Positions 1,989 through 16,978 of a stretch of DNA of 17,114 bases are shown here, piece after piece. The position numbers and the translations under genes are program-made. This DNA is from an uncultured archaeon (lineage in GTDB: Archaea; Iainarchaeota; Iainarchaeia; Iainarchaeales; GCA-2688035). The notes under the pieces are model-generated. The model searched no databases. It was given only the letters and a program-made list of their open reading frames with translations, and was not told the DNA's origin. Positions within the stretch are counted from its first letter, which is position 1. The number at the start of each line of letters is the position of its first letter. The stretch covers positions 1 to 17,114 of the forward strand of contig CAYHBD010000032.1 in the NCBI GenBank assembly GCA_964354805.1, in the 5' to 3' direction.

Positions 1989-2468
1989 TTACGATTCCAA
2001 CGGCATTTCAATTCTGTTGCTGTTCGCGCTACCGACAACAAGGCTGTTTGGCTGTGCTGATTCAATGCACAGCAGGGCGCTTGCCAAAACTTCTTGCTTT
2101 GGCTGCAGGGCATCTGTTCTGCAGTTGTTGCATGCAATAACTTTTATTCCTGACCCGAATTTGAGGAATACTTTTTCTGCTACGCTACTGCCTCTGTTTT
2201 TTACTGTTATTTCAATAGCTGTTTCCTGGGGGCATTGCAGCAGTTTTGCCCCATTGCTTACGCTGGCTTCAAGTGTTGTTGGCTGCAAAACAGTGAAAGA
2301 GAGTCCTGCCTGCATGCCTGATTCGTTTTCTGCGTTTTTTTGTTGTGGCTGCTGTCTTGCAGCGCCCAATCCGAATAAGCCGGTTAAATTTTTGTCATAA
2401 AAATAGAAGAAAAGCAATGCAATCGCGATCAACATTGCTCCCAATAAAAACAGCTTGTTTCTGTTCAT
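1989..2468 (-). CDS. Membrane-anchored extracellular protein with a CARDB/Ig-like domain
   Basis: N-terminal hydrophobic segment, then IEITVKNRGSSVAEKV, a CARDB-like motif. Starts 3 nt after the upstream stop, so likely co-transcribed. Confidence 0.6.
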   Translation of the reverse strand: MNRNKLFLLGAMLIAIALLFFYFYDKNLTGLFGLGAARQQPQQKNAENESGMQAGLSFTVLQPTTLEASVSNGAKLLQCPQETAIEITVKNRGSSVAEKVFLKFGSGIKVIACNNCRTDALQPKQEVLASALLCIESAQPNSLVVGSANSNRIEMPLES

Positions 2469-2471
2469 TAT

Positions 2472-4025
2472 TCAGACCTGCATTGAAAGGCTAACGCTAA
2501 GGTTTGCTGCAGCAATTTCAAATGAAAGCGAGTTTGAGTTAACGCTGCCAAGAATACTATCTGCTGTTACGGAGGCGAAAACAGTTCTTTCCCCAACAGC
2601 AAGCATGTTAACATAAATGTCTGCCTGCTTTGTTTCATTCGGCTTTATTTCTGGAATGCTCAGCGTGCTTGTCTCTGTTTGAATCCAATCATTGGACAGG
2701 CCGTTCAATGAAATGCGCAGATTTTTTGCCGCAATCTTGCCGTTGTTTGTTATTGTTACAGTGAATTTTACAACGCTGTTAAGGGGTACAAGGTTTGGGT
2801 TTGAAGGGGCAGCTGCCTTTTTTGTTGGAAAGATTTTTCCGCTTAATGCAATTGCAGCAATGGCTGTATCAGGGGCATTTGAATTTAGCGCATCTCTCCC
2901 AAAGCCTTTGTCCGGGAGCTGCATTCCCTTAAGGCATTGCAATGCGCTATTTGCATCGCGGTTGTAGGCGATTAAAGCCATTGCCCCCAAAGCGGTTGTG
3001 TAAGCATTAGAGAGGCAGCCGCTTGGTTGCTGTTTTCCTTTAAGCCATGCAATTGCTGCATTTATTGCTTGGTTTTTTTCCTGCCCTGCTGCTGCAAAAG
3101 CTACCAGCGCTTCAGCACTGTAATCTTCTGAACTGTTTTGCCCTGCTTTGTATCCAAAGCCGCCATCTGCATTTTGGGCTGAAAAGAGGTAGTCAATTGG
3201 TGTTTTGCTGTTTTTTGTTGGCATAGGCGTGCTTGCTGCAGCGAAAGCAAGTATTGCCCAGGCTGTTGTGTCAACATCGCTGCTGCCCCAGCCACTGAAA
3301 CCAGCGTCGTTTTCTTGTTTTGAGAGCAGAAAGTCAATTGCAGTATTGTTTCCTTTGTTAAAATCTTCAACCGAGAGGCCGTTTGCAATCAGTGCCATTA
3401 TTGAAACGCCTGTGTGCAGTGCATCGCGTTCAAAACCCGGGTAAGCGAAGCCAGCATCTTGCGCTTGGTTTGCAAGCAGATAGCCCTGGGCATTTTGTTT
3501 AACCGAATCATTGCCTGCTGAAAGGTTTAATGCCATTAATGCAAAAGCATTTCCCCAGACAGCATGCGAGCCGATTTGCCCATTGCTGTCTTGGTGTGCT
3601 GCAAGCCAGGTTATTGCATCGTTAATTACAGTCTGCCTTGTTTTGCTCGGCACATCAGCAAAGCCCAATTCGATTGTGTCACCGTTTACTGGAACATAGG
3701 CACTTACTCCAACCGGTGCGAATTCCGCATTCACCCAAAAATGCCAGTATTGCCCTGCTGAATTGTTTATTCCGTTTATTCCGTTGATGAACCAGCTGTC
3801 GAAGGAGGGGTAGTATGTCATATCCATCTGCAGATTGTGTGCTGCAGCAACCTGCATGAATGCATTGAATGCATTTGCGTCGTCTGCTACATTGGTTGAT
3901 TCCTCTATGTCAGTGAATGTGCCAGCTGGGAAATTGTAGATTACCGTAACGTTTTTTGCTGTCGCATGCGCTGCCAGGAAGGAAAACAAAATGAGTAAAA
4001 GAAAACATTTTTTCAACTTGGGCAT
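2472..4025 (-). CDS. Secreted DUF4430 + prenyltransferase-like alpha/alpha barrel + CARDB-like protein (transcobalamin-like domain set)
   Basis: Signal peptide MPKLKKCFLLLILFSFLAAHATA. DUF4430 motif FINGINGI...YWHFWVN...VGVSAY...GDTIE. Repeats WLAAHQDSNG, YLLANQAQDAGF, FLLSKQENDAGF, YLFSAQNADGGF, MQLPDKGF. C-terminal FTVTITNNG...IKPNETK. Confidence 0.8.
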   Translation of the reverse strand: MPKLKKCFLLLILFSFLAAHATAKNVTVIYNFPAGTFTDIEESTNVADDANAFNAFMQVAAAHNLQMDMTYYPSFDSWFINGINGINNSAGQYWHFWVNAEFAPVGVSAYVPVNGDTIELGFADVPSKTRQTVINDAITWLAAHQDSNGQIGSHAVWGNAFALMALNLSAGNDSVKQNAQGYLLANQAQDAGFAYPGFERDALHTGVSIMALIANGLSVEDFNKGNNTAIDFLLSKQENDAGFSGWGSSDVDTTAWAILAFAAASTPMPTKNSKTPIDYLFSAQNADGGFGYKAGQNSSEDYSAEALVAFAAAGQEKNQAINAAIAWLKGKQQPSGCLSNAYTTALGAMALIAYNRDANSALQCLKGMQLPDKGFGRDALNSNAPDTAIAAIALSGKIFPTKKAAAPSNPNLVPLNSVVKFTVTITNNGKIAAKNLRISLNGLSNDWIQTETSTLSIPEIKPNETKQADIYVNMLAVGERTVFASVTADSILGSVNSNSLSFEIAAANLSVSLSMQV

Positions 4026-10946: not shown

Positions 10947-11939
10947 TTCACAGCCTCCTTTTTGTTGAAAAAGCAACTATACGTGCCAGTATGGCACGCA
11001 TTCCCCCTTTGTTCAACCTTTAGCAAAACCGCGTCCCTGTCGCAGTCAAGCAAAATCTCTTTTACCTTCTGGCAATTTCCAGATGTTGCCCCTTTTTGCC
11101 AAATGCATTGCCTGCTTCTGCTCCAGTATGTTGCCTTGCCTGTTTCAATTGTTCTTTCCAATGATTCCCTGTTCATGAAAGCAAGCATCAGCACTCTGCC
11201 ACTGCTTTCATCCTGTGCAATCGCTGGAACTAGGCCTTTTCCTTTTGCAAAATCCACTGAATTGAATTCCATTATTTCTTGCAAGGAAATTTTTCCGCTG
11301 TAAAAAGCCATTCCAAGCACGCTGTCAAACCCTAAATTCTCCAGTGCAATGATTTCCCGCATGCTGCTTATGCCTCCTGCAAAGCTTTTCCTGTTGCTTG
11401 TTAACCCGCTTAATTCCTTTGCAAAAGCCGTGTTTGTCCCGCTCAGCATGCCCTCCTTTTCAATGCAGGTGAAAAGGAATTCCGAGCAATATGGCTCCAA
11501 TTCTTTCACCAAGTCAAGTGCATTTCTCCCTGTATTTTCTGTCCAGCCTTTTGCCATTACTTCTCCCTCCCAAGAATCAACTGCAGCGATGAAGGCAATC
11601 CCTCCCAAATTCTTTGCTCAGGCTTTGAAGGAACCCTTTGTCAGCTTTTGTGCCGATTATTATTTTTTTTGCACCCCATCCAAGCACTTGCCCTGCCTTC
11701 TTTATGCTTCTTATGCCTCCGCCAACCCTTGCATTTACAACAGCGCAGATTTCTTTGATTGCTTCGCTGTTATCGCCCTTGCCCATGGCGGCGTCTAAGT
11801 CAATCACTTGGACGGCAGGCAACGAAGACAAGGTCTGAGCAAAACGCACTGGCTCTTCTTCCAGCTGCAGCTGTTTCTCCTTTCCCTGCCTTAGCTGCAC
11901 AATTTTTCCATTCATCAAATCAATGCTTGCTATTATCAT
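10943..11939 (-). CDS. hisA: HisA-HisI fusion of about 331 aa, interrupted by a +1 frameshift at about 11588-11594
   Basis: Frame 0 (11939-11577) gives the HisA N-half ([34 protein letters not shown]). The +1 frame gives IAAVDS...KGW...EGMLSG...AGGI and then HisI ([34 protein letters not shown]). Joined product reads EFGRDCL-IAAVDS. Confidence 0.9.
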
Positions 11940-12752
11940 TGTAACACCTCCAATCCTTTGCTTTTCAAATATTCTTTCACCTGCTTAACAGTGAATTTTC
12001 CATAGTGGAAAACGCTTGCTCCCAAAACAGCGCTTGCTTTCCCTTCAGACAGAACCGTATACATGTCTTCAAGGCTGCCTGCACCGCCTGATGCAATCAC
12101 TGGAATTGCAACAGCCTGGCTTATTGCTTTGGTTAAAGCAATGTCAAACCCCTGCTGGGTTCCATCCTTGTCTATTGAAGTGAGCAGAATGCTGCCTGCG
12201 CCAAGTTTCTCAACAGTTTGCGCCCACTCAATTGCATCCAAGCCAGTATTTTTGCTCCCTGCGTTTATGAAGACATTCCATTTGTTTCCAACCTTCTGCG
12301 CGTCAATTGCTGAAACAACGGCGCTTTTGCCGAGTTTTTGCGAAAGCTGCTGCAGTAACCCCGGTTTCTTCACTGCTGCGCTGTTTACGCCTATTTTTGC
12401 TGCCCCTGCTTGAATCAATCCCTTGGCTTCTGCAACGCTTCTGATTCCTCCACCGATTGTTAGTGGAACAGTGCATGCAGCAGCTATTCTTTTCACTGCC
12501 GCAATCCTTGTTTTTCTTCGTTCCACTGTTGCATTGATGTCCAATACGACTATTTCATCTGCCTCCTGTGCGCAGTATTTTAGCACTTGTTGCACTGGAT
12601 CTCCGACCTTTTCCACATTCCTGAATTTCTTTCCCTTCACCAATTCAATCTTTCCATTGCTCAGATTGCAGTCCAAGCAAGGAATGACTTTCTTTATTTC
12701 TCTTTTGGTGAAGTCGCTCACCTTTTACACTTATGTCTATGTTTGAATTCAT
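11936..12752 (-). CDS. hisF: Imidazole glycerol phosphate synthase cyclase subunit; start is either ATG 12752 with a +1 frameshift or the SD-less GTG 12721
   Basis: VIPCLD, GDPV, ADEIVVLDI, GGGIRS, SAIDA, LLTSIDKDGT..GFD, IASGGAG, ASVFHY. The perfect SD GGAGGTGA (12759-12766) serves ATG 12752, whose frame ends after 35 aa at 12645. Confidence 0.93.
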
Positions 12753-12770
12753 CTTGATTCACCTCCAGAA

Positions 12771-12785
12771 TCAGTGATGATGAAG
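12771..12785 (-). promoter_or_regulatory. CTT CAT CAT CAC TGA (Leu-His-His-His-stop) element directly upstream of the hisF SD
   Basis: Read directly on the minus strand, 4 nt before GGAGGTGA. No canonical in-frame start codon between it and tRNA-His. Confidence 0.5.
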
Positions 12786-12811
12786 TAAACCACTTATAGA
12801 ATTAGTTTGAG

Positions 12812-12920
12812 GGCCGGTACCGGGAGTCGAACCCGGGCCTAAGGCTCGCTGTAGCTTTTGCGAGCTTTTTTCTAAAAAGCTCCCACAGGCCTCAATGCTA
12901 GCCACTACACCATACCAGCC
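12812..12920 (-). tRNA. tRNA-His(GTG) with encoded G-1 and a 36 nt intron at position 37/38 (12847-12882)
   Basis: G-1:C73, acceptor GCTGGTA/TACCGGC, anticodon stem GAGGC/GCCTT, T arm CCGGG-TTCGACT-CCCGG. Canonical BHB: central helix CTGT/ACAG, bulges GG|G and CG|A, intron helix AGCTTTT/AAAAGCT. Confidence 0.95.
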
Positions 12921-12923
12921 ATT

Positions 12924-13116
12924 CGCCGACACGCCCGGCGGGTTCGGGTCCGATTGCCTTACGGCAATCCGACGAGCTCGCCTTTCGGCTCGCATTCGCA
13001 GCCCTTCGGCAAAGCCTTTTTTGCTTTCGCAAAAAAGCCTCCTTGCAAAACCTTCGGTTTTGCGAGGTCCCGCAAAAGCAAAGCTTTTGCAGGATGGGAA
13101 AAAAAGCCTCTCGGCT
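12924..13116 (-). other. Dense hairpin array abutting the tRNA-His 5' end (structured leader, ncRNA or palindromic element)
   Basis: Hairpins at 12924-12940, 12952-12969, 12980-12989, 13017-13036, 13041-13067, 13068-13094 and 13105-13116. Four have GNRA loops on the minus strand (GTAA, GAAA, GAAA, GAGA). Confidence 0.6.
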
Positions 13117-13268
13117 GCTTTAGAATTAATTTTAAAGTAATTAAATTTGTTTCTGTTCTGGCAGCTACTTAAATCAAAAGAAAAAGTTTCATTGAATGTG
13201 AAGTAACTCACTTATCATAGCTGTCAATAAGATTTATGGGCGTATTTGTTTTAAAAACCCTTGCCTGT

Positions 13269-13592
13269 TCATCTGGCTCTTGCAATTGCCTCAACTTTCT
13301 TTGGCGCTGTTTCTTCAATCATTCTTGCTTCGAACCGCAGGATGTCTTTTACCATCGGGCTTTTAGTGTTTAATGTAAACAGTTTTGTGTTTCCAAAAGT
13401 CCTTGTGACCCTGATTAAGTCAAGTTCCTGCAGCTTGTGCCAGTGCTTGAATAGGGCGCCCTTGCTCACGCCTGCAAGCTGCTGCACTTCCTTTTTGCTG
13501 TATTCCCCGCCAATATTGTCAATGAATGTGTCAAGAATTCTAATAAACGGGTTGTCTCCAAAAAATCGAACAAGATTTGTTTCCTCGCGCAT
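13269..13592 (-). CDS. Small winged helix-turn-helix protein
   Basis: FGDNPFIRILD...YSKKEVQQLAGVSKGALFKHWHKLQELDLIRVTRTFGNTKLFTLN gives an HTH plus wing pattern. Confidence 0.75.
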   Translation of the reverse strand: MREETNLVRFFGDNPFIRILDTFIDNIGGEYSKKEVQQLAGVSKGALFKHWHKLQELDLIRVTRTFGNTKLFTLNTKSPMVKDILRFEARMIEETAPKKVEAIARAR

Positions 13593-15116: not shown

Positions 15117-15290
15117 TTTGATTTGAAATTTGGTTGTTTGAAGGAAAGAATTGCAGGGCGCTTGTAATTTTATTTGGTTTTTTTTAAAGAAAGAATTGTA
15201 TGTGCTGTAATTTTTTTTGGGTTGGTTTGGGATTTGGTTTTTTGAAATAAAGAATTGCAGTGTGTTATAATTTTTTTCAGGAGAATTGCA
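15107..15290. repeat. Four degenerate tandem units filling the argH-RSH intergenic region
   Basis: Units begin gcgcttgtaattt (15107, 15158), gtgctgtaattt (15202) and gtgttataattt (15262). Each ends in agaattgya and the first three contain atttggtt. Confidence 0.75.
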
Positions 15291-16978
15291 TGGAGAAGCG
15301 TTCTGATAATGAATTGAAAAAATTGCTTGCGATTGTCAAAAAGAATTACCCTGACTGTGATTCTGCACTAATTCAGAACGCTTTTTTGTTTGCAAAAAAG
15401 GCCCACAGGTATCAAAGAAGAGAGTCCAAACAGCCTTTTTTTATTCATCCTGTTGCAACAGCATTCATTTTGGCTGAGCTAGGGGCTGATAGCAAAACAG
15501 TTGCGGCTGCTTTGCTGCATGATGTTCTGGAGGACACCAAGACAAGCCCAAAACAACTTCGTTCCCTGTTTGGCGCCGATGTTTTAAGGCTTGTTCAGGG
15601 CGTTACCAAATTGAGTAAGCTTGCAGAGCAAAAGCAGAGTGCAAGGGCAGCAGCGAACCTGCAGCATTTGCTGCTTGCGACAACAAAAGAACCCAGGGTT
15701 ATTGTAATAAAGCTTGCTGACAAGCTGCATAACCTGAGAACACTGCGCTTTCTGCCAAGCGAGGACAGGCACAGGATTGCTGCTGAGGCATTGGCTGTGT
15801 ATGCTCCAATTGCTTTAAAGTTGGGCATTCATGCTTTGTATAATGAAATGAGTGGTTTGGCTTTCAAATATTTGAAGCCAGAGATTTACAGCAGTTTGAA
15901 AAGAAGCGTTATAAAAAAAGAGAAAGCAAAGCGGCCTGAAATCAATGCAATGATTGGCATAATCAAGAAGAAAGTTGGCAAGAGCTTTTTGTTCAGCATT
16001 GATGAGAAAACGTTTTTCGCTATTTATTCAAAAATGCAGACAAAGGAGAAAAGCTTGGATGAGGTGCCTGACACACTTGTTTTGAAAATCATTGCGCCAA
16101 CAGTTGCTGACTGCTATTGCCTTCTTGGAACACTGCACAGCCTTTTCACACCCCTGCCTGGAAAAATAAAGGACTACATTGCTTTGCCCCAGCCTAACCT
16201 GTACCAGGCGCTGCATTCAACTGTTCTTGGCCCAAAAGGAACCCCTATGAAGATTCGGATTGCCACAAAAGAGATGCAGGAAATAACAAAAAAAGGAATC
16301 ATTGCTTTCTGGCAGCTGCAAAGCAAGGGAACAGACAAGCTGCTGCACAAAAACATTGCGCTGCTTGCAAAGTTAATGAGCAAAAGCGCTGCTGCCGGAA
16401 ACGAGGATTTTGTCGATGCCCTGAAATCGGATTTTCTGGCAAAAACAATAACTGTTTTTTCAGCAGACGGTGAAGCGATTGAGTTGCCAGCTGGCGCTAC
16501 TCCTATTGATTTCGCGTTTCACTTTGATAAAAAGAGCGCTTTGAGGCTTTGGGAGGTGAAGGTTAATGGAAAATTTGTTTCCCTTTCAAGAAAGCTTGAA
16601 AGCGGTGACATTGTTGAAACAATTTCCTCAAGCGAAGTGCAGGTAAAGGAATCATGGCTGCATTCTGTGAAAAGCTTTGCGGCAAAAAAAGCAATCAAGG
16701 CCTTTTTGCGCTCGCAGCGCGCTTTATGGAAACAAATGCCATCGATTGATTTAAATGTTGAAGTAAACGATGTTGTCGGCGTGCTTGCTGCAATCAGCAG
16801 GGCACTTAGCAGCAATGGAATCGACATCAGGGCAGCGTCGGTTGGAACAATGCCAAACGCAAAATCAGAATGCCACTTCAACCTGGAATTCCCAAGCGCT
16901 GAAAAATTAAGGAAAACAATGGATAAAATAAAGAAAATAAAAGACGTGAAATCAGTAGAGATAATTTACAGGGAATAA
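15290..16978 (+). CDS. Long RelA/SpoT homologue (HD hydrolase, degenerate synthetase, TGS, ACT)
   Basis: AHRYQRR, FIHP, LLHDVLEDT, IKLADKLHN, KDYIALP..YQALHST, LPAGATPIDFA, KVNGKFV, and C-terminal ACT EVNDVVGVLAAI. SD-like AGGAG before ATG 15290. Confidence 0.92.
   Translation: MEKRSDNELKKLLAIVKKNYPDCDSALIQNAFLFAKKAHRYQRRESKQPFFIHPVATAFILAELGADSKTVAAALLHDVLEDTKTSPKQLRSLFGADVLRLVQGVTKLSKLAEQKQSARAAANLQHLLLATTKEPRVIVIKLADKLHNLRTLRFLPSEDRHRIAAEALAVYAPIALKLGIHALYNEMSGLAFKYLKPEIYSSLKRSVIKKEKAKRPEINAMIGIIKKKVGKSFLFSIDEKTFFAIYSKMQTKEKSLDEVPDTLVLKIIAPTVADCYCLLGTLHSLFTPLPGKIKDYIALPQPNLYQALHSTVLGPKGTPMKIRIATKEMQEITKKGIIAFWQLQSKGTDKLLHKNIALLAKLMSKSAAAGNEDFVDALKSDFLAKTITVFSADGEAIELPAGATPIDFAFHFDKKSALRLWEVKVNGKFVSLSRKLESGDIVETISSSEVQVKESWLHSVKSFAAKKAIKAFLRSQRALWKQMPSIDLNVEVNDVVGVLAAISRALSSNGIDIRAASVGTMPNAKSECHFNLEFPSAEKLRKTMDKIKKIKDVKSVEIIYRE

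Follow-up and report, generated by a model that had tools for sequence, protein, structure and literature searches.

Serial Leu-His codon pairs linked by conserved +1 frame relations through tRNA-His and the his operon of a DPANN archaeon: possible frameshift gates sensing histidyl-tRNA

The window analyzed here is a stretch of 17,114 nucleotides (nt) of contig CAYHBD010000032.1 (assembly GCA_964354805.1) from a DPANN archaeon, whose 1.38 Mb assembly is 88.5% complete and encodes TBP, a protein that, of the control genomes, only the archaeal ones contain. Its minus strand carries a histidine biosynthesis cluster, for which Pfam searches recovered the order hisF (11936..12721; His_biosynth, E = 2e-71), a hisA-hisI fusion with hisA in two frames, hisG and hisS; the two halves of hisA, the second of them fused to hisI, extend over 11939-10943. 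Upstream of hisF the same strand reads AGT GGT TTA CTT CAT CAT CAC TGA (12771..12794, with CTT at 12785-83 and TGA at 12773-71), i.e. a Leu-His-His-His-stop element, which an earlier note on this DNA had proposed as a third sensor acting through translational coupling. This element, the similar elements with which it shares a transcript and the reading frames that connect them are the subject of this study. The letters of the element were given correctly in that note, as was its +1 frame, which runs from GTG 12793 across a Shine-Dalgarno (SD) sequence, GGAGGTGA (12759..12766, complementary to the 16S rRNA 3' end GGAUCACCUCCU), to a TGA at 12751-49 that overlaps ATG 12752. The ATGA overlaps described for the hisF/hisA and hisI/hisG junctions are likewise real. 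However, ATG 12752 itself, which the note had taken for the start of the operon, lies outside the hisF frame and is the first codon of a 35-codon upstream open reading frame (uORF1; MNSNIDISVKGERLH..., 12645..12752), and hisF lies in the +1 frame of the latter. Contigs of related strains from two public metagenome runs cover 12708-12855 at 96-98% identity with no indel listed, indicating that these frame relations are real rather than an assembly error. No RNA run was among the public runs listed as containing this stretch.

The predicted TATA box of the transcription unit, TTTTTAAAA (13249..13257, minus strand), lies far upstream of this element. A TTTAAA-type box stands 23-30 nt before the first ATG of the unit (ATG0) in 11/11 loci, and in relatives a conserved stretch of the TATACATAAGTT type is found 3' of it. 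Since the box ends so close to ATG0, the message would be almost leaderless. The heptamer CTATAAG, which had earlier been considered as a TATA box, fared less well, given that it is not conserved (relatives have TCTAAG, TTGACAG or TTTGAG in its place), while the strongly conserved box lies approximately 445 nt upstream, ahead of the first cassette. ATG0 opens a near-leaderless mini-ORF (open reading frame), ATG ATA AGT GAG TTA CTT CAC ATT CAA TGA (MISELLHIQ; 13189..13218, minus strand), which we term cassette 0; the Leu-His-His-His-stop element becomes cassette 1, and two further elements of this kind, in uORF1 and in hisA, are cassettes 2 and 3. Equivalents of cassette 0 with the pattern M-x-S-D/E-L/R-L/V-H followed by a stop are present in 19 loci belonging to three families. 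The genome of the window is labeled G000, and relatives are cited by labels of the same kind. In the genomes G003, G005, G010, G014, G007, G162 and G038 the zero frame of cassette 0 continues after the His into a Gly/Cys-rich stretch (H-G-C-x-x-C-G...) specified by GC-rich DNA, which may owe its presence to a peptide, to RNA structure or to chance.

The +1 frame of cassette 0 opens into an ORF of 146 codons (12771..13211, minus strand), here called the bridge, that has no Pfam match and terminates in the Leu-His-His-His-stop of cassette 1. It includes an array of back-to-back hairpins with GNRA-type loops (12921..13137, minus strand), which contains no stop in the bridge frame and gave no significant Rfam match, and, downstream of this array, the gene for tRNA-His (GUG) at 12811..12920 (minus strand), with an encoded G-1, C73 and a 36-nt intron (45.6 bits against the Rfam tRNA model). 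With introns allowed, ARAGORN reports His(gtg) with an intron i(38,36), and without the intron option Ser(aga); it is the single tRNA-His in the assembly among the 23 tRNAs detected by ARAGORN with introns allowed. The metagenome contig Ga0315275_10076961 (L097), a near twin of G000, has a different and longer intron in its tRNA-His, whose length is again a multiple of three, and relatives carry other hairpin inserts elsewhere in the bridge, likewise in frame. The observation of the earlier note that no canonical start lies near in the His frame is right, and it is now answered by the upstream ORF, since the His frame constitutes the last 8 codons of a 146-codon frame that begins upstream of tRNA-His. 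A tmRNA-like (transfer-messenger RNA) arrangement, combining a tRNA with a start-less tag, was considered and dropped after the upstream ATG cassette was found.

To relate the frames across genomes, cassettes 0 and 1 were located by motif alone in 11 loci, and the frame relation between them was asked afterwards. In 11/11 of these loci the zero frame of cassette 1 coincides with the +1 frame of cassette 0, at distances of 231-468 nt that are all 0 mod 3. The bridge frame contains 0 stops in each of the 11 loci, as against 3-14 in each of the other two frames (165 in total), and mononucleotide shuffles of each bridge region left it open in 0-24 of 2000 trials. Similarly, His codons are absent from the bridge frame (0 of 1217 codons over the 11 loci), while the other two frames contain 17 each. 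Eight further loci with an ATG-cassette, from the genera g5 and g8 of the same family and, in the case of two loci, from two other families of the order, also have a +1 frame that is open through tRNA-His. In 6 of these 8 the bridge ends on or beside the start of hisS (by ATGA, TGAATG, or a TGA 4 bases before the ATG), and in the remaining 2 it ends in a cassette 1. Judged from these comparisons, the cassette is kept, and the bridge frame excludes both stop and His codons. The layout of promoter, ATG-Leu-His cassette, tRNA-His and hisS is seen in L044, L045, L046 and L049 (g5), L052 (G162) and L061 (G038). The arrangement with hisS directly after the tRNA, known from three families, may represent the older form, in which the cassette would serve the synthetase and its tRNA as a sensor; the extra cassettes and the his genes may be later insertions into a layout of this type.

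Cassette 1 itself is found at the corresponding position in 13 related loci spanning 10 genera or lineages, with 14 copies of the core (A/G)GTG(A/G)-NNN-A-(C/G)TT-CAY, a recurrence that by these counts exceeds chance. Its ribosomal P-site codon is CUU in 11/14 copies and GUU in 3/14. Conservation of the His run in relatives, which the earlier note had put forward as a check, is borne out for a cassette with 1-3 His codons and fails for a run of exactly three: there are 3 His codons in G000, L097, G012 and G001, 2 in G004 and G011, an H-K-H-H in G003 and 1 in the remaining loci. The zero frame meets a stop 0-7 codons after the last His in all copies except the first of two in G009, where it continues into the second copy; among relatives in which the stop follows the His run immediately, TGA, TAG and TAA all occur at this one position. 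The exact motif TTCATCATCAC is present in six genomes of the family, with only G000 and G001 having it in the context described here, and a metagenome scan that used the 3' end of tRNA-His together with the cassette as anchor recovered two loci only, one of them identical to G003 over the stretch compared.

The +1 exit frame of cassette 1 (12749..12793, minus strand) comprises 14 sense codons in the window and includes the SD of uORF1, its TGA overlapping ATG 12752. In relatives, too, this frame remains open and keeps its phase as far as the ATGA of the following start codon: in 9/9 loci it terminates at the start of uORF1 (by ATGA or TAATG), and the spacers between cassettes 1 and 2, of 65, 68, 71 and 101 nt, are all 2 mod 3. 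In G001, which is without uORF1, the exit consists of 32 codons that lead to a TGA directly 5' of the hisF ATG. In G018 (L048, 760-1518) the exit frame encodes a complete Asp/Glu/hydantoin-family racemase (Pfam E = 1.5e-38), in a frame that has no other start codon and terminates on the ATGA of uORF1. The N-terminus of the same racemase follows cassette 1, directly after tRNA-His, in G014 (L053) and G007 (L064). Since the racemase is encoded there in G018, G014 and G007, the +1 frame of cassette 1 is, to all appearance, really used in some relatives. In the window this frame is a 14-codon connector without a functional product, the racemase product being restricted to the three genomes named. 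A link of this racemase to histidine metabolism is possible.

These data also bear on the idea that cassette 1 is a decaying duplicate, in which case it would suffice for the bridge to terminate ahead of the SD, while neither the +1 exit nor the His codons would have a function at this site. The variation in His codons from 1 to 3, the weak SD-like element of the cassette, the presence of an SD proper to uORF1, the six loci in which hisS follows the tRNA without a cassette 1, and the resemblance of the region to a shortened copy of uORF1 would all fit such decay. Nevertheless, we regard it as unlikely: the core has been kept in 13 loci of 10 genera or lineages, indels in the spacer preserve the phase, in 9/9 loci the following ATG is where the +1 frame terminates, the stop after the His run varies between TGA, TAG and TAA at a constant place, and the +1 frame holds a whole enzyme gene in G018 and the start of the same racemase in G014 and G007.

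Downstream of cassette 1, BLAST searches with the tRNA 3' half plus the leader as query against the genomes of the order defined a module that, within the family, consists in order of tRNA-His, AGTGRTTTA-(C/G)TT-CAY, an SD, an ATG and a 15-codon uORF1 that ends in GGTGA-NNNA-(C/G)TT-CAY. In the window this last element, cassette 2, reads GGTGA GCGA CTT CAC (12722-12708, minus strand) within uORF1. The first gene of the operon follows it in the +1 frame, being hisF here and hisD or hisG in relatives. The leader of L097 (about 2400-3050), from the 3' half of tRNA-His up to CTT-CAC, matches that of the window almost base by base over the stretch compared, yet it is joined to hisD, and the homology ceases right after CTT-CAC. 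Given that this leader runs into hisD and that homology stops at this point, the module is portable and is bounded on its 3' side by the Leu-His pair; the edge of the cassette looks like a recombination joint. In different relatives the leader heads hisF, hisD, hisG, the racemase gene or hisS. Neither nhmmer nor pattern searches recovered the uORF1 module a second time in this genome. Across 151 genomes of the order, a covariance model built on the module gave strong matches only in the family and in one cysK leader, with matches of 28 bits or less resembling an ordinary SD plus ATG. The cysK leader belongs to G164, from another family (L055/L074, about 1473-1548), in which a homologous SD-ATG-uORF module scoring 50 bits precedes a cysK-like gene. 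This leader has CGG-TGT (Arg-Cys) where the his leaders have CTT-CAC, and its CGG is unable to re-pair in the +1 frame. In G003 (L039/L096) the region 3' of cassette 2 encodes about 30 codons of the hisD N-terminus, a stop, and then a hisF without its first strand, and looks like a rearranged or decaying locus.

An element of the same build as the other cassettes, but with no GTG, lies inside hisA: cassette 3, GGGAGGGA TTGC CTT CAT (11589..11606, minus strand). The Pfam matches to the two halves of HisA are in different frames and meet at model position 123/124. The hisA match has an internal TGA in G000, G004 and G010 and occupies two overlapping frames in G001. By this arrangement of frames, the two halves of the HisA barrel enzyme would be joinable only by a +1 shift.

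Sequence features around the Leu-His pairs are compatible with slippage. Each cassette has a match of 5-8 nt to the 16S rRNA 3' end GAUCACCUCCU, with a spacer of 3-4 nt to the P-site codon, and GUGA ends 4 nt before the P-site codon in all copies. In cassette 1 the slip site would be CUU-CAU-C, with the zero frame terminating by TGA after three His codons. A tRNA-Leu with the anticodon GAG could re-pair from CUU to UUC by means of two Watson-Crick pairs and one G-U pair.

Another account of the downstream frames would be that the GTG in each cassette (12793 in cassette 1) is an ordinary start codon at which the connector, the bridge and the first gene begin, with the Leu-His frame as a by-product. 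Most cassettes do have a GTG or ATG in their +1 frame, that frame is open from there in most loci, and in G018, G014 and G007 the racemase frame offers no canonical start other than the cassette GTG. However, in the variant TTA-GTT-CAY a TAG enters the +1 frame just before the shift point. Seven copies in six genomes are of this type (cassette 0 of G012, G005 and G038; cassette 1 of G004 and G011; cassette 2 of G003 and G005), and the downstream frames are nonetheless open, with the hisD of G005 intact. As the TAG variants close the frame upstream of frames that are still open, the cassette GTG is not needed as a start. Moreover, there is no SD before the cassette GTGs, GTG 12721 itself being within an AGGTGA element, and neither cassette 0 of G038 nor the hisA break has a GTG at all. 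Ordinary starts would also leave the conserved Leu/Val-His pair and the His-free bridge unexplained, and we give this account little credence.

The conserved block could alternatively be a binding site in DNA or RNA, either an operator or a protein-bound hairpin AGUGAU/AUCACU, to which the frames would be incidental. An inverted repeat AGTGRT...ATCACT can indeed be drawn in most copies, with G-U pairs keeping the stem, but there are no two-sided compensatory changes, and RNAalifold applied to the uORF1 module returned only 4 weak pairs. As such a site would leave unexplained both the conserved phases and why stop and His codons are excluded across 230-470 nt, it appears decidedly improbable. 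A C/D-box small RNA on the opposite strand, suggested by GTGATGA, was also considered and dropped, as no D box follows.

A further alternative is a stand-alone leader peptide of the hisL type, in which stalling on the His run would refold the RNA and thereby release transcription or translation of the operon. It is recommended by the three successive His codons with a stop directly before the operon, and by the minimum-energy fold of G000, which pairs the cassette with the SD. Nonetheless, the presumed short peptide has neither a start codon nor an SD and belongs to a frame of 146 codons; the SD-pairing fold is missing in most relatives, z-scores are unremarkable and the G001 spacer has no notable fold; and stalling on the His run would leave the SD covered by the ribosome. 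The statement of the earlier note that no terminator/antiterminator pair is visible agrees with our results, in that neither such a pair nor a conserved fold was found. A permissive Rfam scan of 12600-13300 (E up to 5) detected no His leader, no T-box and no other family, the non-tRNA matches having E values of 0.5-2.8 and scores far under gathering. A leader of the hisL type is accordingly the least probable of the alternatives, with hardly any weight in our judgment.

The reading that we favor, at slightly better than even odds (roughly 55%), is that Leu-His-His-His-stop is the second of four gates on one transcript, at each of which a His codon would sense His-tRNA by means of a +1 frameshift. 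At the level of reading frames, a chain extends from ATG0 to the bridge, via tRNA-His to cassette 1, the connector, uORF1, hisF and the break in hisA, with a +1 step at every link. That ribosomes actually shift at the Leu/Val-His pairs, and do so in dependence on the charging of tRNA-His, is what we infer from this chain. The proposal of a third sensor is thereby retained insofar as the element is part of a conserved series of Leu/Val-His pairs, and altered insofar as it would be the second gate in the 5' to 3' direction, and neither a third independent sensor nor a leader standing alone.

Under this frameshift relay the conserved promoter (TATA box at 13257-13249) would place the 5' end of the mRNA a few bases before ATG 13218, and a ribosome would read M-I-S-E-L-L-His from there. 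With ample charged tRNA-His it would stop two codons further on. With a slow His codon, the peptidyl-tRNA-Leu on CUU might re-pair one base forward on UUC, and the slipped ribosome would then read the 146-codon bridge over the hairpin array and the tRNA-His sequence, so as to arrive at cassette 1 in the His frame. If His-tRNA is present at this point, it would read His-His-His and stop at 12771; if absent, a second +1 slip would carry it across the SD to terminate on the A-TGA of ATG 12752, a termination that would hand translation over to uORF1. The Leu-His pair of uORF1 would gate hisF in the same way, and the fourth pair would gate the second half of hisA. Each cassette would thus act as a gate, and gates in series would sharpen the response.

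Several roles may be envisaged, speculatively, for the passage of ribosomes through the tRNA. It might maintain the coupling of translation to transcription beyond the 3' end of the tRNA gene, postpone the cleavage by RNase P/RNase Z that would sever the messenger, or merely deliver ribosomes to the next start codon. In a more far-reaching version, one transcript would be both the precursor of tRNA-His and the messenger for his genes and hisS, and the slipped ribosome would choose its use by blocking termination or delaying RNase P/RNase Z cleavage, so that charged tRNA-His would control the tRNA, the synthetase and histidine synthesis in a single act. This extension is tentative, and on balance we doubt it.

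Several observations weigh against the relay. With a perfect SD at uORF1 itself, ribosomes could enter there without passing either upstream gate, and a fold that masks this SD is predicted only in G000, L097 and partly G005. The number of His codons at cassette 1 ranges from 1 to 3, and six loci with hisS directly after the tRNA are without cassette 1. The SD-like element of cassette 1 is weak (GUGGU; GUGGU/GUGAU corresponds to 5 nt of the 16S 3' end). The spacing to the P site is just 1-2 nt shorter than at real start sites of the operon, and the geometry of cassette 1 is therefore less strained than that of prfB, discussed below; moreover, the Val variant GUU re-pairs poorly on UUC. The length of the bridge in one genome proves nothing, since other tRNAs of this genome also lie in chance ORFs of up to 396 nt, albeit with none of the features described here; the weight is borne, as far as sequence comparison goes, by the phase across genomes and by the numbers of stops and of His codons. 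Even these come from loci that are mutually related, so that the counts overstate independence and raw probabilities are too optimistic.

Elsewhere in the window, the plus strand at 15260-16978, close to the his cluster, encodes a long RelA/SpoT homologue with the Pfam domains HD, RelA_SpoT, TGS and ACT.

If the favored reading is true, the ribosome itself would be the histidine sensor, by a change of frame and not by RNA hairpins, several gates in series would yield a steep response, and a frame held open through a tRNA gene would be a new link between the production of a tRNA and the use of an mRNA. Because the element is short and portable, it can be tested in reporters without growing the organism. 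In the literature searched we found no description of a histidine-sensing frameshift in archaea, nor a published case of amino-acid control of archaeal biosynthetic operons.

The enterobacterial hisL leader, a short ORF that has a start codon to itself, contains seven His codons in a row, and its terminator and antiterminator hairpins act on transcription. As proposed for the archaeal locus, the level of charged tRNA-His is signaled to the his operon by His codons within a translated leader; in contrast, the short ORF with its own start, the seven-His run and the terminator/antiterminator hairpins are all missing here. In Firmicutes, hisS and his genes are controlled by T-boxes, structured RNAs that bind tRNA directly (PMC9413887). 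The regulated set, namely the histidine synthesis genes and histidyl-tRNA synthetase, and the signal, the charging of tRNA-His, would be the same in both, although Rfam detects no T-box here. With regard to the 5' end of the message, leaderless poly-Cys short ORFs of mycobacteria are reported to attenuate operon expression in response to cysteine (bioRxiv 10.1101/834739). As far as the abstract of that study goes, they share with cassette 0 a leaderless mini-ORF with which the operon mRNA begins and whose cognate codons sense the amino acid; they differ in being bacterial, and the abstract makes no mention of a change of frame.

Among systems that do change frame, the nearest analogue for a slipped ribosome that continues toward the following cistron is the ermC leader ORF, in which ketolide-induced frameshifting unfolds a defined hairpin over the ermC start (PMC5009743). 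There too, leader ribosomes that have changed frame read into the spacer before the next cistron, activating ermC, with the difference that the trigger is an antibiotic and the hairpin a defined one, while no conserved hairpin was found here. The +1 frameshift of yeast Ty1 and ABP140 at CUU-AGG-C (PMC5009743) offers a parallel for the slip itself, in that a tRNA-Leu slips from CUU while a "hungry codon" awaits its scarce aminoacyl-tRNA, within a heptamer of the form CUU-NNN-C. However, these cases are eukaryotic, the codon is slow on account of a rare tRNA and not of amino-acid shortage, and the product ratio is fixed, without metabolic sensing. In the autoregulatory +1 frameshift of prfB, the gene for release factor 2 (RF2), the site is CUU-UGA-C with an internal SD-like element (PMC5009743). 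The archaeal site, proposed here from sequence comparison, differs in its A-site codon, which specifies His and would be read by His-tRNA in place of a stop read by RF2, in its archaeal host, in its weak SD-like element at 4 nt instead of 3 nt from CUU, in the presence of several sites in series, and in a +1 frame that is only a 14-codon connector in the window. These differences are set against a shared logic: in both, the CUU in the P site can re-pair in the +1 frame, a stretch that can be matched to the anti-SD, if only weakly in cassette 1, lies a few bases upstream, the slow A-site codon would be the sensor, the zero frame ends at once, and, as we propose for the his locus, a shortage of the decoding factor would raise expression.

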